The notes under the pieces were generated by a model that was not told where the DNA came from, ran no database searches, and worked only from the letters and a program-made list of their open reading frames with translations. A stretch of 31,906 nucleotides of DNA from Gemmatimonadota bacterium (lineage in GTDB: Bacteria; Gemmatimonadota; Gemmatimonadetes; Gemmatimonadales; GWC2-71-9). This document shows positions 3,050 through 29,016 of this stretch, piece after piece (positions within the stretch are counted from its first letter, which is position 1; each line of letters begins with the position of its first letter). The translations under genes and the position numbers were made by a program. The stretch is from positions 1-31,906 of the forward strand of contig JBDHCY010000035.1 of assembly GCA_039591795.1 (NCBI GenBank), written 5' to 3'.

Positions 3050-3361
3050 GGCAGATCCATTCGTTCGTAGCGATCCCGCGAAGATGGGGACGGCGCCCTG
3101 TTCAAGCAACAACTGCGCCGTCCCGGACCCGGGAGGAGTACGGGTGAATCCCTCCCCGGAGGCGACCAGCGGCGCCCGCCCCTCTGAAGACGGTAGGCCC
3201 TGCACGTCCCGGGGTTCGACCGGGGCGGATCCGGCCATGGACAGCGTGGGCGGCTTGGGGAGATGCTCCCGCCGGCGCCGGGTGTGGTCGCGGCGGAGGG
3301 ACGGTCTATCGCCAAAACCTGGCGCGATGCCGCCAGGCCCATACCTTGTGCACTTGATCTC

Positions 3362-9626: not shown

Positions 9627-9781
9627 CTTCGGACTCTCCCGGCGGGATGTCAACGCGCTCGGCCTGTAAGCTAAGTTACGGCCCTGCTGAGTGGGAGCAA
9701 TGCACCCGAGCTGCTCCGACCCCGGCGCCAAGCCGACCCTTCCCAATTGACACCCTCCGAGCGGGCACGCCATACTCTCGC

Positions 9782-10718
9782 GTGCACCCGCTCGAGCCCG
9801 TCACGCTCTCGGAGATCGTCGCGGCGCGCGATCGCGTTGCTGGGGCGGTCGTTCGAACGCCCCTCGTTCGACTCAACGTCGAGACCGACACGGCGATCTA
9901 CCTGAAGCTCGAGAACCTGCAGCCAATCGGCTCGTTCAAACTGCGCGGGGCGGGCAACGCCCTGCGCAAGATGGACTCGCGGGCGCTGCAGCGCGGCGTG
10001 TACACGGCGAGCGCGGGCAACATGGCGCAGGGCCTTGCCTGGGCGGCGCGTGAGCTCGGGATTACCTGTCGCGTCGTTGTCCCGGATCGGGCCCCGAAGG
10101 CCAAGCTCGACGCGATTCATCGCGGTGCCGTTCGACGAGTGGTGGCGCGTCATCGTCACGCATGAGTATCCGGGGCTCGACGAGACCTTTGTCCATCCGG
10201 TGAGCAACGCGGATGTCATAGCCGGGAACGGAACCATCGGCCTCGAGATCTTGGAGGATCTCCCCGACATGGCAACCGTCCTGGTGCCGTTCGGCGGTGG
10301 CGGACTCAGTTGCGGGATCGCCTCCGCCATCCGAACGCACGCCCCGGCTGTCCGGGTGTTCGCCTGCGAGATAGCGACTGCGGCACCCCTCAGGGCGTCT
10401 CTGCAGCTCGGGGGGCCGACGGAGGTGAAGCACGAACCGAGCTTCGTCGACGGGATCGGCGGGAAGAGCGTGCTCGACGAGATGTGGCCGCTCGTGCGTG
10501 AGTTGCTCGCCGGGTCGCTCGTGACCTCGGTCGAGGCGGTCGCCGCCGCCGTGCGGACGCTGGTCGAGCGCAATCGTGTTGTGGCCGAGGGCGCTGGTGC
10601 GACCCCGGTAGCGGTAGCGCTTGAGCACGCGCTGGAAGGCCCCGTCGTGTGCATCGTGTCTGGCGGCAACATCGATCCGTCCAAGCTCGCCGACATCCTG
10701 CGCGGCACGGTGCCGTAG
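9782..10718 (+). pseudogene. threonine/serine dehydratase-like PLP-dependent enzyme (fold type II), disrupted by a frameshift near 10115-10145
   Basis: The N-terminal half (frame of ORF 9647..10165) carries the PLP-lysine motif SFKLRGA and ASAGNMAQG. The C-terminal half (frame of ORF 10035..10718) carries FVHPVSNADVIAGNGTIGLEIL, the VPFGGGGLSCGIA glycine loop and a SGGNID C-terminus. The two halves use the same nucleotides in different frames around 10120-10140. The start is GTG 9782, aligned to the TdcB N-terminus. Confidence 0.6.
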
Positions 10719-10806
10719 CGCGTAACGAGAGGTGGCACTGATCCGCGGCCACTTGTCCGCGCACCACCTTCCTGGTAATTGTGTGTGCAGTCATGGGGGA
10801 TTCACG

Positions 10807-11604
10807 ATGAGCTCAACTCCAGTCGACCAGGTCGAAGCGCAAGAGCCGCTCGAAGCCGTGATCAAGGGCGAGGTGCTCCGCATGTATCAGGAGGTGGCGG
10901 ATCACCCCGACGCCGAGTTCCACTTCTTCCATGGCCGCGAGGCGGCAGAAATGCTCGGGTACGATCCTGAGTGGCTGGAGCAGGCCCCAGAAGGCGCCGT
11001 GGTCTCGTTTGCCGGAGTGGGGAACCCGCACGTGCGGAGCGAATTGCGGCCGGGCGAGACGGTGCTCGATCTTGGCAGCGGTGCCGGGCTCGACGGCATC
11101 ATCGCGTCCTGGCAGGTCGGGCCGACCGGTCGAGTCATCGGGGTCGACCTCAATCCGTCGATGTGCATCAAGGCACAGGCCCACGCCGCCGCGTCGGGGA
11201 CTCGGATCGAGTGTCAGGAGGGCCGAATGGAGGAGATCCCCCTCCCCGACGCCAGCGTCGACGTCGTCATCTCGAACGGCGTGATCAACCTGTCGTTCCG
11301 GAAGCGGCTCGTCGTCCGCGAGCTGTTTCGCGTCTTGAAGCCTGGTGGCCGCATCTCGATCACCGACATCGTGAGCGCGAGACAACTGTCACAGTCCATC
11401 GTCAACGACCCCAAACTGTGGGCCAGTTGAATCGGTGGCGCTCTCCCGGAGGGAGAGATGTTCGCGCTGCTCGAGAAGGCCGGGTTCAAGCGAGTGCGCT
11501 CCGCAGCCGTGCCCGGCTTCGCGTTCCGCAAGGACTCGACCAGGGATGCCGCCGAGGCCTACGGGGTGAAGTCTGTGATGATGACCGCTCGCAAGCCCGA
11601 CTGA
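10807..11604 (+). CDS. ArsM/AS3MT-like SAM-dependent methyltransferase with an in-frame UGA (11428-11430) at the conserved Cys position; candidate selenoprotein (265 aa if read through)
   Basis: ATG 10807 is preceded by GGGGGA with a 6-nt spacer. SAM-binding VLDLGSGAG is present, as are IPLPDASVDVVISNGVINLS and FRVLKPGG, which match ArsM. The ORF hits TGA at 11428-11430. The same frame stays open 57 more codons (IGGALPEGEMFALLEKAGFKRV...SVMMTARKPD) to TGA 11602-11604 and continues to align with ArsM/AS3MT. The UGA aligns to Cys in LW(V/G)(G/E)C(L/I)(A/G)GAL. Confidence 0.6.
11441..11457 (+). promoter_or_regulatory. SECIS-like GC-rich hairpin (CUCUCCC-GGA-GGGAGAG) beginning 11 nt downstream of the in-frame UGA
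   Basis: Perfect 7-bp inverted repeat with a G-containing apical loop. The 10-nt spacing from the UGA matches bacterial SECIS placement. The hairpin lies inside the coding frame (encodes LPEGE). Confidence 0.4.
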
Positions 11605-11649: not shown

Positions 11650-12096
11650 TCAGCGCCGCACCGCGATCCCTTGGATCTCAAAATGCCCGCCGCGTAGGAG
11701 CGGGCCCGATCCGATGAAGGCTCGGGCCGGAAACGATTGGCTGAAGTATGTCCGGTAGACGGCGTTGAAGCGGTCGTAGAGAGTGAGATCTGGGCAGAAG
11801 ACCTGCACCGTGACGAGATCGTCCATGGTCATGCCCGCCTCGGACAGCACCGCACGGATTCCATCCAGTGCCAGCCTGATTTCGGCTTCGATCTCAGCGG
11901 GCGGCTGACCGGTTGCCGGATCGACGCCAATCCGGCCGGCGAGGTAGAGTGTGTTGCCGACGAGCACCGCGTTGCTATACGGAAGGTCGTCGCTGCGACC
12001 GGCGACGTTTATCGCCAGTCGAGCGGCAGGTGCATCGCGTGTGCACCCGGACAGGGCGAGCCCTGCGAGCATAGGGAGGATGGCCAAGCTCCTCAT
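11650..12096 (-). CDS. RidA/YjgF family reactive-intermediate deaminase, predicted lipoprotein
   Basis: Internal ATG 12096 is preceded by AAGGAG with a 6-nt spacer. The lipobox MRSLAILPMLAGLALSGC is present. The RidA core reads NAVLVGNTLYLAGRIG...TMDDLVTVQVFC...RAFIG. Confidence 0.75.
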   Translation of the reverse strand: MRSLAILPMLAGLALSGCTRDAPAARLAINVAGRSDDLPYSNAVLVGNTLYLAGRIGVDPATGQPPAEIEAEIRLALDGIRAVLSEAGMTMDDLVTVQVFCPDLTLYDRFNAVYRTYFSQSFPARAFIGSGPLLRGGHFEIQGIAVRR

Positions 12097-12184
12097 CAGG
12101 ATCTCCTTTCGCTGGTGTGGCATGGTCGCGTGCGCGGGTAAGTTGAACGTGGTGCGACGCCGCCGCGAGCCCTCACGCGCCGTG

Positions 12185-12622
12185 ATGAGGGTGGCCGTGG
12201 CCGTGGTGGCCGTTGCGGCGACGCCGGTGCACGCCCTGTCGCAGTTTCGTCCCCCGACGCCCACACGCTCGCTCTCGAGGGGCGAGTACACCAGAGCGCA
12301 GGCGGAACGGGGCGCTCTGGTGTTCCGAGAGACCTGTTCGAGTTGTCACCCGAGGTCGGCCTTCACTGACGGTGGTTTCCGACGGCGCTGGAACGGTCGC
12401 CCGGTCGCTCTGATGTTCACGCTGATCAGCACTGCGATGCCCGAGGACGCGCCCGGCAGCCTTCAACGGGATACCTACGCCGACGTGCTGGCGTACATCT
12501 TTGCACTCAACGGCCTTCCCGCTGGCCCACGTGAGCTGCCGACCGATCTTGGTGCGTTGCGCGAGATCCGCATGGATTTCGTGCCACCTCCGACCCACTT
12601 CCCGCACCGCGAGCAGCGGTGA
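12185..12622 (+). CDS. c-type cytochrome (class I, single CxxCH), secreted
   Basis: Heme-binding motif CSSCHP is present. The N-terminal signal MRVAVAVVAVAATPVHA fits a secreted protein. Start is ATG 12185 (GTG 12182 also possible). Confidence 0.65.
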   Translation: MRVAVAVVAVAATPVHALSQFRPPTPTRSLSRGEYTRAQAERGALVFRETCSSCHPRSAFTDGGFRRRWNGRPVALMFTLISTAMPEDAPGSLQRDTYADVLAYIFALNGLPAGPRELPTDLGALREIRMDFVPPPTHFPHREQR

Positions 12623-20842: not shown

Positions 20843-22519
20843 TCACTCGCGCGCGCGGCGATCGGGCGCCGGGAGTGCCTCCGACAGTCGGTCCAGACAC
20901 TGCTCCGCTGCAGCCGCGCCATCGCGACCGAGCACGAGGCGCACTTCCTGAATCGCAGCCACGCACTGCTCGAGCTCGGCCTCCAACGCGATTCGGCTCG
21001 ATTCCGCCTCCCGCGTCGCCCGGTGCTCCCGGTTCGCGATCGTGCTCCCGAGCTCACGCCCACCCACATCCGCGTCGCCCAGCCCCGGCCCACGCTCGAG
21101 GCGCCGGCGTGCCGCGGCAATGGCGCGATCGAGGGCCTCGACCCGGTCTGCGAGCGAGGCGGCACGGGCGACCGCCCGATCGACGGCCGGGAGCACGTCT
21201 GCGAGCTCGGCTCGCTCCGCTGACGCGACGCGCGCGGCAATAGAGACGATGACGGCCCGCTCGGTGGCTGCCCGCTGTACGAGCGGGCTGTGTGATGACG
21301 TGGCGCTTCGAGCTTCGTCTCCGACTCGGAGGGCGGCTATGACGAGCCCGTACTCGAGGAGCACGAAGAGTATCGCCGCGGCGGCGACGAATGGCGCGAA
21401 ATCGATCTGCTGGTCGAGCATACCATCGAGCGCGAAGGCGCTGAGAGACACGCCGAGCGCGAGGGCGGCCGCCCACCTGAACCGACGGCGGGGATCGACT
21501 TCCGTTGTGGTCGCCACGCCGTGAGCCCTCCGGGCGGCGACGGGGAGACCTCGCTCGCCGCGCTGGGCCGCGGGGGCCTCGCCACTCGTGAGCGCGCCCA
21601 GTAGTGCGCTCGCCGATTCCCAGCGCTCCTCAGGCTCCCGAACGAGACAGCGAGAAACGACGGAGGCGAGATCGGGCGGGCAGTCGGCGCGAAGGTCGCT
21701 GGGCGACGGCGCGTCTTCCCTGAGCTGCTGCGTGAGGAGCCCAAGTACCGAGTCTGACCGGAAAGGCGTGCGTCCGGTCAGCATCTCATACGCGACGACG
21801 CCGAGCGAGTAAATGTCGGATGGCGGACCGATCTCGGGTTCGCCAGCTGCTTGCTCGGGGCTCATGTAGTGCGGCGTCCCGAGCAGCACGCCGGCCATGG
21901 TGAGCGCTCCGCCGACCTCCGCGGTGCGGCGCGCGATGCCGAAGTCGGAGAGGAGAGCTCGTTGCTCGTCGCCCTCGAGGAGCACATTGTCCGGCTTGAG
22001 ATCGCGGTGGATGACGCCCGCCGCATGTGCTGCTTCGAGCGCCGAGGCGAGCTCGCATGAGATGCGGTGCACCTCGATGGCCGGCAGTGGTCCTTCCCGC
22101 GCGATTCGTGCGCGCAGATCCTCGCCCACGATCCTCGGCATGATGAGGTAGGCCAAACCGTGGCCTTCGCCAATCGCGAACACGGGGACGATGTGCGGAT
22201 GCCTCAGCTTTGCCATCGCACGCGCCTCGCGCCGGAAGCGCGTGGCCATCTCGTCCGACCCCACGACCCCGAGGCGGAGAGTCTTGACGGCGACGTCCCG
22301 ATCGAGCTGCAGATCGCGCGCGGCGTACACCTCGCCGAACCCCCCACGCCCGAGGAGCTCACCAAGCCGGTACCCACGCCCCAGGGCGCGTTGAAGCTGC
22401 TCACGCCTCTGGTCGTCGTCCTGCTGCGGCTCGACGGGCCCCGACTGCGCACCGCACGCTGGGCAGAATGCGGCGGACGCGGGGAGCTCGGCTGAACAGC
22501 TGGGGCAGGTCTCGGGCAC
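20843..22519 (-). CDS. serine/threonine protein kinase with N-terminal zinc-ribbon and C-terminal membrane/coiled-coil region
   Basis: Hanks kinase motifs are present: LGRGGFGEVY, VAVK, HRDLKPDNVLL, DFGIAR and GTPHYMSPE. The zinc ribbon CPSCSAELPASAAFCPACG sits at the N-terminus. The proposed start is GTG 22519 (MPETCPSC...). The 104 codons upstream in the ORF look non-coding and would collide with the divergent gene's promoter. Confidence 0.75.
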   Translation of the reverse strand: MPETCPSCSAELPASAAFCPACGAQSGPVEPQQDDDQRREQLQRALGRGYRLGELLGRGGFGEVYAARDLQLDRDVAVKTLRLGVVGSDEMATRFRREARAMAKLRHPHIVPVFAIGEGHGLAYLIMPRIVGEDLRARIAREGPLPAIEVHRISCELASALEAAHAAGVIHRDLKPDNVLLEGDEQRALLSDFGIARRTAEVGGALTMAGVLLGTPHYMSPEQAAGEPEIGPPSDIYSLGVVAYEMLTGRTPFRSDSVLGLLTQQLREDAPSPSDLRADCPPDLASVVSRCLVREPEERWESASALLGALTSGEAPAAQRGERGLPVAARRAHGVATTTEVDPRRRFRWAAALALGVSLSAFALDGMLDQQIDFAPFVAAAAILFVLLEYGLVIAALRVGDEARSATSSHSPLVQRAATERAVIVSIAARVASAERAELADVLPAVDRAVARAASLADRVEALDRAIAAARRRLERGPGLGDADVGGRELGSTIANREHRATREAESSRIALEAELEQCVAAIQEVRLVLGRDGAAAAEQCLDRLSEALPAPDRRARE

Positions 22520-22614
22520 GTCGGCGAAGAGAAGGGACGGCCAAGTATCGCTCCGCTGCCCATCGCCCGGCAAGGGAAGTGGCCGACGCGAAGCCGCGAC
22601 GCTACAATCCCGCC

Positions 22615-23337
22615 ATGATGAACGCACCGACGATGGGGCCGCTCCTGGTGGCACTGGCGGCGATCCTCCTTCCGGCTGCCGGCATCGGACATCGGTTCGG
22701 CCGCTGGCGATTCCGCACGGGGGTCGCGCTGGTGGCACTGGCCGCTGTGCTCGCGGGGCTCGGCACGGCGCTCTGCTTGATCGCGCTCCCCGAGCTGCGC
22801 TCCCGGGAACTCTCGGCCATGTGGCCGGCAATCGTCGGCGCGGTCGTCGGCCTTGCCGTGCTGTCCGTCCCCTTGCGCCGGTTCATCCTGCGCCTCTGGC
22901 TCCCGGCGATCCACGACGTCAGCACCGACCTCGACGATCCGCCGCGCTTCGTTGCCATCCTCGAGCACCGCGCCGGAGCCCCGAATCCACCGGAACACGG
23001 TGGGGTGGCGGTGACAGAGCGACAGCGCCGGGCGTATCCCGAAATCGTCCCCCTCGATCTCGAGCTGCCAACCGATGCGGCGTTCGCGGCCGTTCAGGCC
23101 GCCGCCGAGGAACTCGGGTGGACCGTTGTCGCCCAGGACCCGGCGGCGGGAGACCTCGAGGCGACCGCTACCACCCTCTGGTTTGGTTTCAAGGACGACG
23201 TCGTCGTGCGCGTGCGGGAGCACGAGCACGGCAGCCGAGTTGACGTGCGCTCCGCTTCGCGAGTCGGCACGAGTGATCTTGGCACCAACGCGGCACGGAT
23301 CCGGGCATTCCTCCGGTTGGTCAGCGGCGGCCCGTGA
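22615..23337 (+). CDS. DUF1499-like membrane-associated protein
   Basis: ATGATG start at 22615 is preceded by TACAAT. Two N-terminal TM helices are present. The C-terminal region LEATATTLWFGFKDDVVVRV...VDVRSASRVGTSDLGTNAARIRAF resembles DUF1499. Confidence 0.55.
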   Translation: MMNAPTMGPLLVALAAILLPAAGIGHRFGRWRFRTGVALVALAAVLAGLGTALCLIALPELRSRELSAMWPAIVGAVVGLAVLSVPLRRFILRLWLPAIHDVSTDLDDPPRFVAILEHRAGAPNPPEHGGVAVTERQRRAYPEIVPLDLELPTDAAFAAVQAAAEELGWTVVAQDPAAGDLEATATTLWFGFKDDVVVRVREHEHGSRVDVRSASRVGTSDLGTNAARIRAFLRLVSGGP

Positions 23338-24232: not shown

Positions 24233-27112
24233 ATGCCGAGTGCCGGTCGAGTGCTTGACGCCCTGCCACCCCACACGCCAACTTCGCCACCGGGCATGCC
24301 CGATCCAGACCTTCCGCTCGACGCTCGCCTCCTCGAGCGCCTTCAACGCGCCCTCGGAGATCGGTACGAGCTGCAGCACCTGCTGGGTGCCGGTGGCATG
24401 GGGGTCGTCTACCTCGCCCGCGACCTGACACTCGACCGCCCGATCGCCGTCAAGGTGGTGCCACCCCACCTTGCGACTGCCGTTGCCGTCGAGCGCTTTC
24501 TGCGCGAAGCGCAAATACTGGCCGATCTGAACCACCCGAACATCGTCAAGGTCTATGATTTCGGTCAGCGCGAGGGACTCCTCTACTATCTGATGGAGTA
24601 CCTCCAAGGCGAGACACTCGCCGCGCGCATTCAACGAGCTCGACTGCCGTCTGCCGACGCGGTCGCCATGGCACCAGAGCTGCTCGCCGCGCTGGAAACA
24701 GCGCACGAGCGTGGCATCGTGCATCGCGACGTCAAGCCAAGCAACGTGATGCTGGTCGGTACCCGCCCGGTACTCACCGACTTCGGCATCGCAAAGCGCG
24801 CCACGCGGCGCGACGAGACCGTCACGGAGCCGGATGCGGTGCCGGGCACCCCAGCCTACATGGCGCCCGAGGCAATTGGCGGCGAGGTGACGGAGCTCGC
24901 GGACCAGTATTCCGCTGCCATGGTCATCTACGAAGCCCTGACCGCGCGACAGTGGGAGGGAGTCGGTGCGCCGGAACGTGCCGACTGGTCCGGCGTACCG
25001 CGTCACCTGTACGGCCCGTTGGCGAGGGCACTCGCCTCCGCGCCGGCGGACCGCTGGCCGGACGTGGCGAGTCTGCGCCACGCGCTGCTGCGGGCGCGGC
25101 CACCGCGGCCACTGTGGGTGCGCGCGGCCGCCGCGGTGGCCGCCGTCGTCGCCCTTGCCGCCGTCGTCTGGGTCAACTCACGGGCTCAGCCAGAATTCGC
25201 GGACGGGCCGAGTCAGCTGAGACTTCATGTCCCCCGCCTGGGCTACGATGGCCCGCCGGCCGGCGCCTGGATCGCCGACTCGATCACGGCCCACGTCCGA
25301 CGGAGCCTCGCCGGCCCCGACGTGACGGTCCTCCCTCGGGAAGGGCGGCGGGCCGGTGCGTCGACGATCGCCGGAACGCTCACGATGAGCGGTGATTCGG
25401 TCGCGGTCACGTTGATCGCCGACGCATTATCGCTTCCGAGAATCTCTCCACGCCCCGAGCCCGAATGGCGAGCGCTGGCCGACAGTGCGGCCCTGCAAAC
25501 CTGGATATGGATCTGGCGATCGCGCGCCGAGCGCGGACCGCTACCGGTGCGTGCTCTGCCCGCGACCCCCGACGCGTTTCCACCGTTCGTGCACGGCGAG
25601 CTGCTTTTTGCGCAGGCACGCTGGCGGGAGGCAGCCCGGGCGTACGCCCAAGCCGAAGCGCTCGATTCGACGTGCCTTCTGTGCTCCTGGCGACTCTTCG
25701 ACGTGGGTCGCTGGCTCTCGCTCACCCCTGACGAGGCACGCTACCGTCGGCTCCTCGCCAACGAAAGCGCGTTCCCGCCGCACTATCGCGCGGTTATCCG
25801 TGCCGCCGTGGCGCCGACCGCGACCCGAGTGGACAGCCTCGCGGCGGCTGTGGAGCTGGCGCGTGACTTCCGCACGGCCTGGTTCCATTGGGCGGAGGAG
25901 TTGTTCCACCGCGGCCCGCTGGTGAGGCACTCGCGGCGCGGTGCCGAGGCAGCGTATGTGCAGGTCACGCAACTCGAGCCCGCATTCGTACCTGCATGGC
26001 ATCACCTCGCCTGGCTCCGCACCGCCGAAGGCGATCGTTCGGGTGCGGAGTCCGCGCTCTTCCACATCCAGTCGGCAGGCGACCCTGCCGACGCCTACTC
26101 TCTGGCATTCAACGGCTATGTTGGGGTGGGGTTTGCCTGGCGTTTCCTGCCGCCGGACTCCGCTCGCGCCTTCACCGAGTCGGTGCTTGCCGATCCACGC
26201 ATCGCGGAGTTCGAAGACCTGGGAGCGGGTGCGCGATTCCTCACGGCGTTCGATGCTCCGCGAGGTGCGATTGCCGTGGCGCGTCTCCTCCGGGAGCGCG
26301 ACCTCACACCGCTCGCCTTGCGTTCGACCCTCCTCGCCGAGGTGTTCGGCAATGTGGCGCTCGGGCGTCCCGACTCGGCCCGCGTCGCTGTGGCGCGGCT
26401 TCAGGAGCAGTTCGACAACCCACAGGTGGCACTGTTCGGGGCGCAGCTCGACGCGGCGTGGGCGCTGTTCGGCTCCGGCACCGACGTGGGGTCCACTATC
26501 GCCCGCCTCGAGGAACACGTCGCGCCGTATCCGGGTGCGGAAGAGCGGATCCGCCGAGCAGCCTATCTCCTGGTGCTGCTCGAGCGAAGCACCAACCGTG
26601 GTGACGCCGCCGCTCGTCACCTGGCGCTGCTCGCGAGTGAGCCAGCGCCCCACCCGTTCACCACGCTGCTCGACGCCGACTCGATCGCCCGGCGCGGGGC
26701 CCTCGCGCGGGCCATTGAGATCTCACTGAATCTCGTCGGGTCGCTGGACTCCAGCCAAACGGTCGACGATCCGTTCTTTCGCACGATGCATCATGTACAC
26801 CGCGCGGCGTGGTATACCGAGCTCGGCAACGTCGAGGAGGCGTTCCGCGAGCTTGGATGGTTCGAGAACGCCGACATTGCGGGTGGCTACCCGACCGACG
26901 ATCCAAAGAACGCCGAGGTGGACTGGGCGTTCGGGACGGAGGCACAGTGGCGCCGTGCGCAGTTGCTCGACCGAGCCGGTCGGCGCACGGCGGATGCCTG
27001 TGCCAGCTACGAGGCCGTGTCGCGCCATTGGATCGACGGCGCTTCGCTCTTCGCCGCTCGGGCGGACACCGCGCGCCGACGCTTCAGGGCATTGGGCTGT
27101 GGTGACGCATGA
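24233..27112 (+). CDS. serine/threonine protein kinase with one TM helix and large extracytoplasmic TPR-like/helical-repeat domain
   Basis: Kinase motifs are present: LGAGGMGVVY, AVKV, HRDVKPSNVML, DFGIAK and GTPAYMAPE. A TM helix WVRAAAAVAAVVALAAVVWV follows. The rest is about 600 aa of Ala/Leu-rich helical repeats. The stop overlaps the next start (ATGA). Confidence 0.85.
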   Translation: MPSAGRVLDALPPHTPTSPPGMPDPDLPLDARLLERLQRALGDRYELQHLLGAGGMGVVYLARDLTLDRPIAVKVVPPHLATAVAVERFLREAQILADLNHPNIVKVYDFGQREGLLYYLMEYLQGETLAARIQRARLPSADAVAMAPELLAALETAHERGIVHRDVKPSNVMLVGTRPVLTDFGIAKRATRRDETVTEPDAVPGTPAYMAPEAIGGEVTELADQYSAAMVIYEALTARQWEGVGAPERADWSGVPRHLYGPLARALASAPADRWPDVASLRHALLRARPPRPLWVRAAAAVAAVVALAAVVWVNSRAQPEFADGPSQLRLHVPRLGYDGPPAGAWIADSITAHVRRSLAGPDVTVLPREGRRAGASTIAGTLTMSGDSVAVTLIADALSLPRISPRPEPEWRALADSAALQTWIWIWRSRAERGPLPVRALPATPDAFPPFVHGELLFAQARWREAARAYAQAEALDSTCLLCSWRLFDVGRWLSLTPDEARYRRLLANESAFPPHYRAVIRAAVAPTATRVDSLAAAVELARDFRTAWFHWAEELFHRGPLVRHSRRGAEAAYVQVTQLEPAFVPAWHHLAWLRTAEGDRSGAESALFHIQSAGDPADAYSLAFNGYVGVGFAWRFLPPDSARAFTESVLADPRIAEFEDLGAGARFLTAFDAPRGAIAVARLLRERDLTPLALRSTLLAEVFGNVALGRPDSARVAVARLQEQFDNPQVALFGAQLDAAWALFGSGTDVGSTIARLEEHVAPYPGAEERIRRAAYLLVLLERSTNRGDAAARHLALLASEPAPHPFTTLLDADSIARRGALARAIEISLNLVGSLDSSQTVDDPFFRTMHHVHRAAWYTELGNVEEAFRELGWFENADIAGGYPTDDPKNAEVDWAFGTEAQWRRAQLLDRAGRRTADACASYEAVSRHWIDGASLFAARADTARRRFRALGCGDA

Positions 27113-29016
27113 TCTTCGTCCGCATGCTGGGCCCGGTGCAGGCGACCGTGGATGGCGAGCCGCCTCCCGCGGAGCTCCTCTGGCGGAAGAACCTTGCGAC
27201 GCTCGTCTACCTCGCGCGCTCCCCCAAGCGAGCGCGCACACGTGAGCACCTCGCGGGACTCCTGTGGCCCGAAAAGCCTGACGCCGCTGCTCGCCACTCG
27301 CTGAACGAAGCCCTTCGGGTGCTGCGGCGCGCCGGCGGCGAGGCGATCATCGATTCTGTCAGCGGCCAGGTCCGCCTAGCAGCTGGCGCCGTGTCACTCG
27401 ACGTCGAGGAGATCGAGCGGCGTGTCGCGGCTCAGGACGTGGCTGGTGCCGCGGCACTGATCACGGGTGAGTTTCTCGAAGGGTTCGCCGTGCCGGGTGC
27501 CGGGGGATTCGAGGACTGGCTGATGGCGGAGCGCGGCGCGTGGCGGGCCCGATCGATCGAAGTGCTCCTCCTCCACCACCGTGCGCTCCTCGACGCGGGG
27601 CGACTCGCCGAAGCCGCAGATGCCGCGGCGCGGGCTGAGGCACTCGACCCCCTGGCAGACTCCGCACTCCGCGCCACCATGCGGTGCCTCGCCCTGGCGG
27701 GAGATCGAGCCGGCGCGCTCGCCCGCTACGATGGGTTCACGGAACGCTTGCGCGAGGCCGTAGGGATCGAGCCGGAGACCGACACGGATGCGTTGGCTGA
27801 GCGCGTGCGCCGAGAGCGCATTTGGCGCCGACCCACACCGATTCCCGGACACGAGTTGCGCGAGCCGCCGCGGCGCGCACCCCTCCTCGGACGCGCGGCC
27901 GAGCTCGCAGCCATTGCGGGCGCCTGGGCTACCTGTCGCCGTGACTCCCAAGCCACCCTGGCGCTGATCGTCGGCGACCCTGGCGCTGGTCGCTCGCGCC
28001 TCGTTGACGAAGTGCTGACCCGTGCCCGACTGGACGGCGCCGCCACCGCACTCGCCCGAGGTGTACCTGCCGATCGGGACGAAGCCGGCAGCGCGACGCT
28101 GGCTCTCGCTCGGGGTGGCCTGCTCGACGCTCCGGGTGCCGCCGCCGCACCGCCTGCCGCGCTCGCTGCGTTCATTGCCCGCATGCCCGAGTGGGGAGAC
28201 CGGTTTCCCGGGAGCCGCCATGTCGAGGAGCCAATGGCACTGGGGCGCGCACTGCGTGAGGTCGTGCGCGCCGTCTCCGACGAGCAGCCGACCATCCTTG
28301 CTCTCGACGACGCGCACCTCGTCGACGGAGAATCACTCGCCTCGCTCGAGGCCGCGGCACGCGACCTCACCGGCTCTCCGATCTTCATTCTGCTCTCGGC
28401 AACAGAGCGGGCCGACCACCCAGAGCTCGAGGTCGTGCGAGCACGCGCCGGGCGCGACGTTGCCGGCATGGTTGTGCGTCTCGAGCCGCTCTCGATGCCC
28501 GCCCTCCGCGAGCTCGCCGCGTGGGCTCTGGGTGGCTGGAGCGACGAATCGCTCGATCGAGTCACTCGGCGGGTCGCCGCAGATTCCGCGGGCCTGCCAC
28601 TCCTGGCTGTGGAGCTAGTGCACGCCGTCGCCGCCGGCCTCGCCCTTCGCGAAACCGAGCGCACGTGGCCCGATCCCGCGCGCACCCTCGACGCCACGCT
28701 ACCGGGAGACCTGCCCGACACCGTCGTGGCAGCGATCCGGACGGGTTTCCGCCTGCTCTCGACCGATGCGCAGCACGTCCTCGCCGCGACCGCCGTCCTC
28801 GGGGGCCGGGCGACGATCCCGCGCCTCGAACGCGCGACCGCAGAGCACGGCGAGCCGCTCGTGACCGCCCTCGACGAGCTGGAGTGGCAACGCTGGCTCA
28901 CATCGGACGAGCGTGGGTATGCCTTTGTCGCTCGTATCGTGGCCGAGGTCGTCGCCCGCGACATGGTGACTCCCGGCCAGCGCCGACGGATTCTCGAGGC
29001 GGCGGGCGCCGGCTGA
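27109..29016 (+). CDS. SARP/AfsR-like regulator: OmpR-type winged-helix DNA-binding domain plus BTAD plus P-loop NTPase domain
   Basis: The N-terminus LGPVQATVDGEPP...NLATLVYLARSPKRARTREHLAGLLWPE...LNEALRVLRR fits a SARP winged helix. A helical BTAD segment follows. Walker A-like LIVGDPGAGRSRL and ILALDDAHLVD (Walker B-like) are present. Confidence 0.8.
   Translation: MIFVRMLGPVQATVDGEPPPAELLWRKNLATLVYLARSPKRARTREHLAGLLWPEKPDAAARHSLNEALRVLRRAGGEAIIDSVSGQVRLAAGAVSLDVEEIERRVAAQDVAGAAALITGEFLEGFAVPGAGGFEDWLMAERGAWRARSIEVLLLHHRALLDAGRLAEAADAAARAEALDPLADSALRATMRCLALAGDRAGALARYDGFTERLREAVGIEPETDTDALAERVRRERIWRRPTPIPGHELREPPRRAPLLGRAAELAAIAGAWATCRRDSQATLALIVGDPGAGRSRLVDEVLTRARLDGAATALARGVPADRDEAGSATLALARGGLLDAPGAAAAPPAALAAFIARMPEWGDRFPGSRHVEEPMALGRALREVVRAVSDEQPTILALDDAHLVDGESLASLEAAARDLTGSPIFILLSATERADHPELEVVRARAGRDVAGMVVRLEPLSMPALRELAAWALGGWSDESLDRVTRRVAADSAGLPLLAVELVHAVAAGLALRETERTWPDPARTLDATLPGDLPDTVVAAIRTGFRLLSTDAQHVLAATAVLGGRATIPRLERATAEHGEPLVTALDELEWQRWLTSDERGYAFVARIVAEVVARDMVTPGQRRRILEAAGAG

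Follow-up and report, generated by a model that had tools for sequence, protein, structure and literature searches.

A predicted selenoprotein methyltransferase of the ArsM fold in Gemmatimonadota: a probable non-canonical clade that retains one of four ArsM cysteine positions, with a tentative role in sulfur or selenium methylation

The arsenite methyltransferases ArsM and AS3MT combine an N-terminal lid with a Rossmann domain that carries the S-adenosylmethionine (SAM) motifs, and ArsM orthologues have been delimited by the presence of at least three of four conserved cysteines (Chen et al. 2017, PMC5552862). TtArsM (TTC0109) of Thermus thermophilus is the first arsenite methyltransferase described as working with a single active-site cysteine, C77, and its histidines His40 and His179 have been proposed to act in place of the other cysteines (PMC8649762). 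An "arsenite methyltransferase, UxxG" selenoprotein goes back to Fomenko et al. 2007, according to the review PMC13188914, and ArsM-type selenoprotein families have been curated in NCBIfam, so that selenocysteine (Sec) in an ArsM-like protein is not in itself new. Sulfur and selenium are methylated by other described enzymes: MddH, MddM1/2 and human TMT1A/B are SAM-dependent S-methyltransferases of H2S or methanethiol (PMC11445057, PMC12904073), and AzCIB_0135 of Aromatoleum is a TPMT-type selenium/tellurium methyltransferase (PMC10128142). Here we analyze a gene on a 31,906-nucleotide stretch of DNA from a Gemmatimonadota bacterium (GenBank assembly GCA_039591795.1, contig JBDHCY010000035.1, positions 1 to 31,906, forward strand; referred to below as the window). 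The gene encodes a relative of ArsM in which one of the four cysteine positions persists, as a UGA codon.

The predicted selenoprotein methyltransferase gene is complete and spans positions 10807..11604 on the forward strand (265 codons). Its frame opens with an ATG at 10807, a start that is backed by the N-termini of homologues and stands 6 nt 3' of a putative Shine-Dalgarno-like GGGGGA read from the sequence (10795..10800, +). The frame meets a TGA at 11428-11430 (codon 208) and then remains open for 57 further codons, up to the terminal TGA at 11602-11604; translated through codon 208, it gives a product of 265 residues ending in ARKPD. The region 3' of the UGA (IGGAL...ARKPD, 11431..11601, +) codes for the helices and strands that complete the methyltransferase fold and aligns to the ArsM residues after Cys224. 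The Pfam matches of the protein are restricted to generic class I SAM-methyltransferase domains (Methyltransf_31/25/11). SAM-binding motif I, LDLGSGAG (11065..11088, +), with its GxGxG at residues 90-94, lies within the Pfam match and aligns with the corresponding motif of CmArsM, and Asp114 (11146-11148, +) follows it at the end of strand 2. The protein modelled with AlphaFold2 was P0001, a homologue that shares 79% identity with the window protein and contains Trp in place of Sec (pLDDT, the predicted local distance difference test score, 91.9). The closest solved folds are 4fr0 and 6cx6 (CmArsM), 5evj (CrArsM) and 8xt7 (human AS3MT), with Foldseek E-values of 1e-19 to 1e-17 and query-normalised template modelling (TM) scores of 0.61-0.72. 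As far as the model tells, the product has the ArsM fold and intact SAM motifs and looks like an active SAM-dependent methyltransferase.

The positions of the ArsM cysteines, designated Cys-A to Cys-D, were located by pairwise HMMER alignment of the window protein to CmArsM (PDB 4fr0/4kw7), by a profile from 109 family members that was used for aligning CrArsM (5evj) and human AS3MT (8xt7), and by a MAFFT alignment of CmArsM with 23 canonical sequences and 13 members of the clade described below, in which the CmArsM N-terminus was verified residue by residue against the PDB. Val71, in the motif SFAGVGNP (11017-11019, +), takes the Cys-B position (CmArsM Cys72) in the HMMER and profile alignments, and Gly158, in VVISNGVINLS (11278-11280, +), takes the Cys-C position (CmArsM Cys174, human AS3MT Cys156). 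The UGA/Sec208 codon, in LWAS-UGA-IGGAL (11428-11430, +), occupies the Cys-D position (CmArsM Cys224, human AS3MT Cys206). In the MAFFT alignment Gly43 stands opposite CmArsM Cys44 (Cys-A), and the Cys-rich "C..CC" stretch of bacterial ArsM is replaced throughout the clade by a conserved FHF..G motif; the window protein has H39-F-F-H42-G43 in its N-terminal lid (10921..10935, +), in place of the canonical Cys-A/"CC" cluster. H39, F40 and G43 are invariant across the 109-sequence alignment, as are Gly158, motif I and Asp114, and V71, G158, C120 and C136 are invariant in 120/120 close homologues. The original prediction, whose quoted motifs (SFAGVGNP, VVISNGVINLS, LWAS-UGA-IGGAL, PSMCIKA, IECQEG) are all present, had proposed that two of three ArsM cysteines were lost, to Val and Gly. 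Both substitutions are confirmed by the CmArsM, CrArsM and human AS3MT alignments; the count has to be revised, since Cys-A is gone as well, leaving one of four cysteines rather than one of three. The prediction had also pointed to extra cysteines. These are present and invariant within the subgroup of the window gene: Cys120, in PSMCIKA (11164..11166, +), and Cys136, in IECQEG on strand 3 (11212..11214, +). They are opposite Leu and Phe, respectively, in CmArsM, and outside the Gemmatimonadota/Eisenbacteria subgroup position 120 is mostly Leu/Ile/Arg and position 136 mostly Phe/Val. Their restriction to the subgroup, at sites that other members fill with hydrophobic residues, makes a role as substitute ligands unlikely, and we rejected them as relocated ligands.

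A stop at codon 208 is a constant feature of the nearest relatives. It is carried by all 120 closest database proteins (~80% identical, mostly Gemmatimonadota), 119 of which end at LWAS or LWAA, while the lone full-length entry, P0001, had translated the TGA as Trp; TGA was found in every close homologous locus examined as DNA, that of P0001 included. Among 72 clade loci from the genomes of other species, TGA occupies the Cys-D codon in 37 and Cys is found there in the rest, and distant relatives have Cys in the codon-208 column. The sequence beyond the UGA evolves as coding sequence: across 14 loci of the subgroup, differences in the 52 codons 3' of it are distributed 789/578/2175 over the first, second and third codon positions, 58% of the differing codons are synonymous, and the frame is conserved in all subgroup loci. 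Immediately downstream, folding and covariation point to a hairpin resembling a selenocysteine insertion sequence (SECIS), CUCUCCC-GGA-GGGAGAG (11441..11457, +), whose stem begins 13 nt after the U of the UGA and whose apical loop starts with GG at +20. Bacterial SECIS elements match such a geometry. Covariation was assessed on 42 loci, drawn from several phyla and aligned without gaps, with slid-partner controls and 500 shuffles. In the 9-pair helix 81.6% of cells are paired, compared with 39-57% for slid partners; the covariation score is 0.378 versus at most 0.145 in the slid controls, none of the 500 shuffles reaches 0.378, and pairs 14-30, 15-29 and 18-26 alternate among CG, GC and UA. 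The single-sequence fold energy of the region is unexceptional (z = -0.27), and the window gave no Rfam match at gathering thresholds, SECIS families included; set against the comparative signal, both count little. Taken on this comparative evidence, it is highly probable that the gene is a real selenoprotein gene whose UGA is read as selenocysteine. The earlier suggestion of a putative Sec at the third ArsM cysteine site is thus borne out by the conservation of the TGA, the Cys-containing relatives, the coding-type evolution 3' of it and the covarying hairpin.

The window protein shares with ArsM/AS3MT (CmArsM 4FR0/6CX6, CrArsM 5EVJ, human AS3MT 8XT7) the fold, with lid, Rossmann domain and SAM motifs, ~30% identity, the "SNxVxNL" and "WxxCxxGA" signatures and a chalcogenolate at Cys-D. 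It differs in having Gly, Val and Gly at Cys-A, Cys-B and Cys-C and the FHF motif instead of the N-terminal Cys cluster, in scoring below the family cut-off, in lacking ars context, and in lacking the C-terminal domain of the eukaryotic enzymes. These differences are not peculiar to one protein. The best 150 relatives from a search of 1.84 billion cluster representatives separate into sequences with GCGNP, SNCVxNL and CxxGA and sequences with SFAG[V/T]G, SNGVxNL and LWxx[C or stop]IxGA. The second set, which reads "FHF..G", "SFAG[VT]G", "SNGVxNL" and then "LWxx[C/U]IxGA", is what we refer to as the clade. It occurs in many bacterial phyla and in some archaea; the Val/Thr plus Gly pattern was found in 72 of 80 loci sampled from GTDB species genomes, a sample tilted towards the clade by the search pattern "ISNGVINL". 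In a neighbour-joining tree the best-matching clade coincides with the Val/Gly set at a Jaccard index of 0.96 (bootstrap mean 0.91); exact monophyly of the set is unsupported in this tree, and identity is no higher within the clade (46%) than between clades (45%).

The curated ArsM model draws the same boundary. Against NCBIfam PRK11873, the curated ArsM family with a cut-off of 263 bits, the window protein scores 208.9 bits and ten other clade members 198-229 bits, compared with 303-358 bits for six canonical controls; no Pfam or NCBIfam family covers the clade. With one of four cysteines, the window protein also lies outside the at-least-three-of-four definition of ArsM orthologues. Judged from sequence comparison, the clade is very probably a distinct, non-canonical one, separate from the true arsenite methyltransferases, and its members are not ordinary ArsM. 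This agrees with the view, already taken in the original prediction, that the cysteine pattern speaks against canonical ArsM: one of four cysteines, a score below the PRK11873 cut-off, and no adjoining ars gene. The Val/Gly pattern is the hallmark of an old and broad clade with Cys and Sec forms, not of a recent loss in a single enzyme. One cluster representative, P0124, is 73% identical to the window protein and combines GCGNP (Cys-B kept) with Gly at Cys-C, its sequence breaking off at the Sec codon. P0124 represents either a genuine transitional form linking the two clades or an artefact of chimeric assembly.

Among the best NCBIfam hits of the window protein are the ArsM-type selenoprotein families NF041537 (ArsM/AhpD; 216 bits against a cut-off of 510), NF041536 (ArsM/DUF2284; 187 against 575) and NF047649 (methyltransferase/UXPK-star; 195 against 460). 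They have in common with it a Sec in UxxG context (U-I-G-G) at Cys-D. The window protein differs from them: it carries neither an AhpD nor a DUF2284 domain, has a single Sec and terminates in ARKPD. A UXPK C-terminus and a further Sec had been considered and were ruled out by their absence from the translation.

Use of Sec is concentrated in the clade. A stop is present at the Cys-D codon in 26 of ~58 informative clade representatives versus 2 of 63 canonical ones, and genome loci give TGA at this codon in 37/72 clade members versus 0/8 canonical. Three types can be recognized. Type A, to which the window gene belongs, is found in Gemmatimonadota and Eisenbacteria and has the motifs EFHF[F/Y]HG, GNP[H/L] (GNPH in 8 of 9 loci) and LWAS-U. 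Type B, from Actinomycetota, Chloroflexota, Proteobacteria and Acidobacteria, has HFHTG, GNPF and DLW[T/S][G/A]-U. Type C, for example in the Halomonas-related Aquisalimonas, in Aromatoleum, haloarchaea and Actinomycetota, has FHFE[M/T]G, G[Y/H][Y/F/H][F/L] and LWA[A/S]-C. The Sec-type branch, which includes the window protein, extends over Gemmatimonadota, Actinomycetota, Chloroflexota, Acidobacteriota and Proteobacteria and is systematically truncated in public gene calls. Within the 72 loci (L010-L088), a second lid His, at position 41 or 42, occurs in 37/37 Sec loci versus 3/35 Cys loci; the xNP motif after the Cys-B position is likewise present in 37/37 TGA loci, and 32 of the 35 Cys loci are without both traits (Fisher p = 2e-17 for Sec versus second His plus xNP, uncorrected for phylogeny). 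The second lid His and Sec may form a His-Sec dyad or ligand set. A Sec-type gene is also present in a cultured actinomycete, Pseudonocardia asaccharolytica DSM 44247 (L088, 2479-3252, TGA at 3079), a species known as a dimethyl-disulfide degrader.

Domain fusions and gene neighbourhoods give some indication of function. Clade members occur fused to TusA, to a DsbA-like thioredoxin, to DUF2652, to a NifS/IscS-type cysteine desulfurase and to a MerTP-like module, and there is a weak HMA match. At one locus on a 614-kb contig (L009) the clade gene is directly followed by a peroxiredoxin/thioredoxin-like gene, DsbD_N, TusA and DsrE and, further on, by Aminotran_5 and a rhodanese-MBL protein; TehB is a neighbour there as well. 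When all open reading frames (ORFs) of the fetched loci were clustered, the recurrent neighbours of types B and C were an MBL protein with two rhodanese domains (14 loci), a fusion of an ArsR-type helix-turn-helix (HTH) domain to rhodanese (11) and a major facilitator superfamily (MFS) transporter (10), several recurrent neighbours adjoining the clade gene on the same strand. At 30 type B (Sec-type) loci, whose nearest-neighbour ORFs number 104, rhodanese is the Pfam domain that these ORFs contain most often. No ars gene (arsR/arsC/acr3/arsB/arsH/arsP) was found among these 104 ORFs, nor in the window or at L001, L004, L005 and L009. The association of the clade with sulfur-relay modules rather than with ars genes is real but partial. 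For type A no conserved context emerged, the neighbours being unrelated in the window, L001, L004 and L005. In the region 3939-7795 of L008 (Halomonas sp. HK25, CP181044.1), a Cys-type clade member adjoins genes for an extracytoplasmic function (ECF) sigma factor and its anti-sigma factor and for another methyltransferase, which is fused to a MerC-like membrane domain. At a distance of 2.4 kb from the clade member, a Methyltransf_11 protein of 207 residues, similar in size to MddH, is encoded.

Our tentative overall explanation, which we hold at a little under even chance, is that the window gene encodes a single-Sec enzyme of the ArsM fold that carries and methylates sulfane sulfur or selenium. 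A one-ligand site would be unable to chelate As(III) in the manner of Cys174 and Cys224 but could bind a monovalent partner by a single Se-X bond, which favours a carrier mechanism. In this scheme the As(III)-binding Cys cluster would have been pared down to a lone Sec208, decoded from UGA with the aid of the hairpin just 3' of it. The selenolate would capture a soft, lone-pair-bearing atom, most likely sulfane sulfur or selenium from persulfide/perselenide carriers or low-molecular-weight polysulfides, through a Se-S or Se-Se bond (Enz-Se-S(-) or Enz-Se-Se(-)). The captured atom would be aligned with the methyl group of SAM, at the site that As(III) occupies in ArsM; attack of the terminal chalcogen on that methyl group would follow, and thiol exchange would release methanethiol or methaneselenol, or mixed dichalcogenides. 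The co-varying lid histidine may tune Sec208. Sec would be advantageous because a one-ligand site requires the same atom to be a good nucleophile and a good leaving group, and sulfane sulfur or selenium is the suggested partner because the TusA, rhodanese and desulfurase-type fusions and neighbours would suit it. The parts of this proposal differ in strength. That the substrate is a chalcogen (sulfur or selenium) rather than arsenic is, from the sequences, an even call; the covalent-carrier mechanism, argued by analogy, is possible though well short of that; and the idea that the Sec-type branch is a new selenoenzyme class, a protein-bound persulfide/perselenide methyltransferase, is doubtful.

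A number of points weigh against the proposal. Sulfur-relay neighbours are present in only ~20% of loci and in 0/13 loci of the window gene's own subgroup. Some clade members are fused to, or lie beside, MerTP/MerC/HMA-like metal-handling modules, which would suggest metals or metalloids rather than sulfur. The placement of Sec208 near the SAM methyl group is predicted by homology to CmArsM Cys224. Methylation of As(III) by TtArsM with a single Cys and His residues means that loss of cysteines does not by itself exclude arsenic, and the Sec-type branch carries conserved histidines, as in the ligands proposed for TtArsM. The loci in which Sec use and His covariation were counted are related by descent and do not form independent observations. 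A tRNA scan of the 31.9-kb window found no tRNA and no tRNA-Sec, none of the 20 window ORFs scanned matched the Sec-machinery families (selA/B/C/D), and no characterised clade member was found in the literature searched. The original prediction had envisaged an enzyme with one highly nucleophilic selenol that methylates, for example, a selenium or sulfur metabolite or a different metalloid; the fusions and adjacency of the clade to TusA, DsrE, rhodanese, NifS-type and DsbA/Trx proteins fit a sulfur or selenium metabolite, as circumstantial evidence, and no such neighbours occur in the subgroup of the window gene itself.

The alternative that survives best, although unlikely, is that the protein is still an arsenic enzyme: a single selenolate would bind As(III), MAs(III) or DMAs(III), and SAM would methylate the arsenic, by way of Enz-Se-As(SR)2 or Enz-Se-As(CH3)2, aided by lid residues H39, H42 and H75 and by glutathione-type co-ligands. 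The ArsM fold and the Cys-D position are retained, the second lid His is always present in the Sec-type branch, the MerTP/HMA fusions add credibility, and on chemical reasoning DMAs(III) requires one protein ligand only. ArsR-family regulators are among the recurrent neighbours, but these carry rhodanese and travel with MBL-rhodanese proteins, as in a sulfide/persulfide-type module, and arsC, acr3/arsB, arsH, arsI and arsP adjoin none of the loci examined. The protein moreover lies below the PRK11873 cut-off and short of the cysteine criterion, and in CmArsM both Cys174 and Cys224 bind arsenic. In work attributed to Huang et al. from 2018, ArsM variants reportedly needed at least the equivalents of these two cysteines. 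The nearest precedent for fewer ligands is TtArsM, an ArsM-related SAM methyltransferase that keeps one conserved Cys and is reported to methylate As(III) with one Cys and two His (PMC8649762). As far as its published description allows a comparison, however, TtArsM retains a different cysteine, C77, near Cys-B and not at Cys-D, is no selenoprotein, and binds and is regulated by an ArsR/SmtB repressor.

A further possibility, decidedly unlikely in our estimate, dispenses with the covalent bond: the enzyme would methylate a free small nucleophile (H2S, methanethiol, selenide or a small thiol) in the manner of MddH, MddM, TMT1 or TPMT, with Sec208 acting as a redox switch, taking part in hydrogen bonding or acid-base chemistry, or joining the histidines as a ligand of a thiol-activating metal. 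The sulfur-related context would suit this as it suits the carrier mechanism, although TusA and NifS-type fusions are better matched to protein-bound sulfur than to free sulfide. A His2-Sec set could bind zinc, for which zinc-dependent thiol methyltransferases provide a precedent; the second His is missing from the Cys-type branch, however, which makes a shared metal site unlikely. Soluble H2S/methanethiol methyltransferases of the superfamily need no catalytic Cys (PMC11445057, PMC12904073), whereas strict conservation of Cys or Sec at one column, and use of costly Sec in about half of the clade, speak for a direct chemical role. MddH, MddM and TMT1 are, like the window protein, soluble class I SAM methyltransferases and plausible functional analogues, and Halomonas, where the MddH-sized protein lies close to the clade member, carries both kinds, which lends this alternative some support. 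They differ in being ~205-215 residues long and of UbiE/UbiG type and in lacking the ArsM lid, and a catalytic Cys or Sec is not reported for them. In MddH the GxGxG is followed by Glu63, where the 265-residue window protein has Asp114; on published size and residue numbering, an identity with MddH, prompted by the Halomonas hits, is unsupported. The TPMT/TehB-type selenium/tellurium enzymes similarly methylate chalcogen species with SAM and volatilise them but belong to other methyltransferase families, TPMT being absent from the Pfam and NCBIfam hits of the window protein; identity with the Aromatoleum tellurium/selenium methyltransferase was rejected, that enzyme being a TPMT.

It is very improbable that the acceptor is an unrelated metabolite or macromolecule, undergoing C-, N- or O-methylation with Cys/Sec208 as covalent nucleophile, like the catalytic residue of pyrimidine-C5 methyltransferases. 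Metabolic genes of no evident relation make up many of the neighbours, and DUF2652 and other fusions are left unexplained, which such an acceptor could accommodate, but every one of the closest sequence and structural relatives is a metalloid methyltransferase, the conserved residue coincides exactly with an ArsM ligand position, and Pfam detects no nucleic-acid-binding domain in the window protein. A genuine stop, or an error, at the TGA, giving a truncated 207-residue protein or a pseudogene in which the Cys pattern has no functional meaning, is hardly credible: all public gene calls end there and the window has no tRNA-Sec gene, sel gene, Rfam SECIS match or exceptional fold energy (z = -0.27), yet the TGA and the frame beyond it are conserved across phyla with coding-type substitutions, relatives have Cys at the site, the hairpin covaries, and truncation would delete the last strands of the Rossmann fold.

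The public copies of the gene examined (P0001-P0120; L007, 93-908) are either cut at the UGA (203-208 residues) or, in P0001, read through with the wrong code, so that a widespread selenoprotein is missing from selenoproteome counts. Clade members bear the names "methyltransferase domain-containing protein", "UbiE" or, at JGI, "arsenite methyltransferase". Gemmatimonadota are listed among arsM carriers in soil metagenomes (PMC12478174), and an enzyme that falls outside every ArsM-specific test may inflate estimates of arsenic methylation there; if our proposal holds, part of the "arsM" genes counted in metagenomes would be unrelated to arsenic. A sulfur or selenium substrate would further imply a new enzyme family and a new route to methanethiol and methylselenol, that is, to volatile sulfur and selenium in soils. 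The clade amounts to a natural experiment in which three of the four ArsM cysteines are gone and about half of the members have Sec at the remaining site, and the perfect covariation of Sec with the second lid His offers a testable handle on the choice between Sec and Cys. In the literature searched, three aspects appear to be undescribed: most of the Sec use in a clade without the other three cysteines, the existence of a clade outside the ArsM tests, including that of at least three of four cysteines (PMC5552862), and the tie of this clade to sulfur-relay modules rather than to ars genes.

Within the window, the methyltransferase gene is flanked by a frameshifted PALP enzyme gene and, on the other strand, by a gene for a RidA-like lipoprotein. 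The upstream gene encodes a pyridoxal phosphate (PLP) enzyme (PF00291, threonine-dehydratase-like; 9647-10718, +) split over two frames, with one ORF at 9647-10165 covering Pfam positions 3-98 and another at 10035-10718 covering positions 129-295; such a frameshift indicates a pseudogene or an assembly error. The downstream RidA/L-PSP family gene (11650-12291, -) converges on the methyltransferase gene, and its product has an N-terminal lipoprotein-like signal peptide, MRSLAILPMLAGLALSGC, which places its true start probably inside the listed ORF. A functional trio of PALP, methyltransferase and RidA was considered and dropped, the type A neighbours being different in the window, L001, L004 and L005. 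Farther away, and unrelated to the methyltransferase, a pair of genes for Ser/Thr protein kinases precedes that of a BTAD + AAA_16 transcriptional regulator (20843-22831, -; 24233-27112, +; 27109-29016, +).

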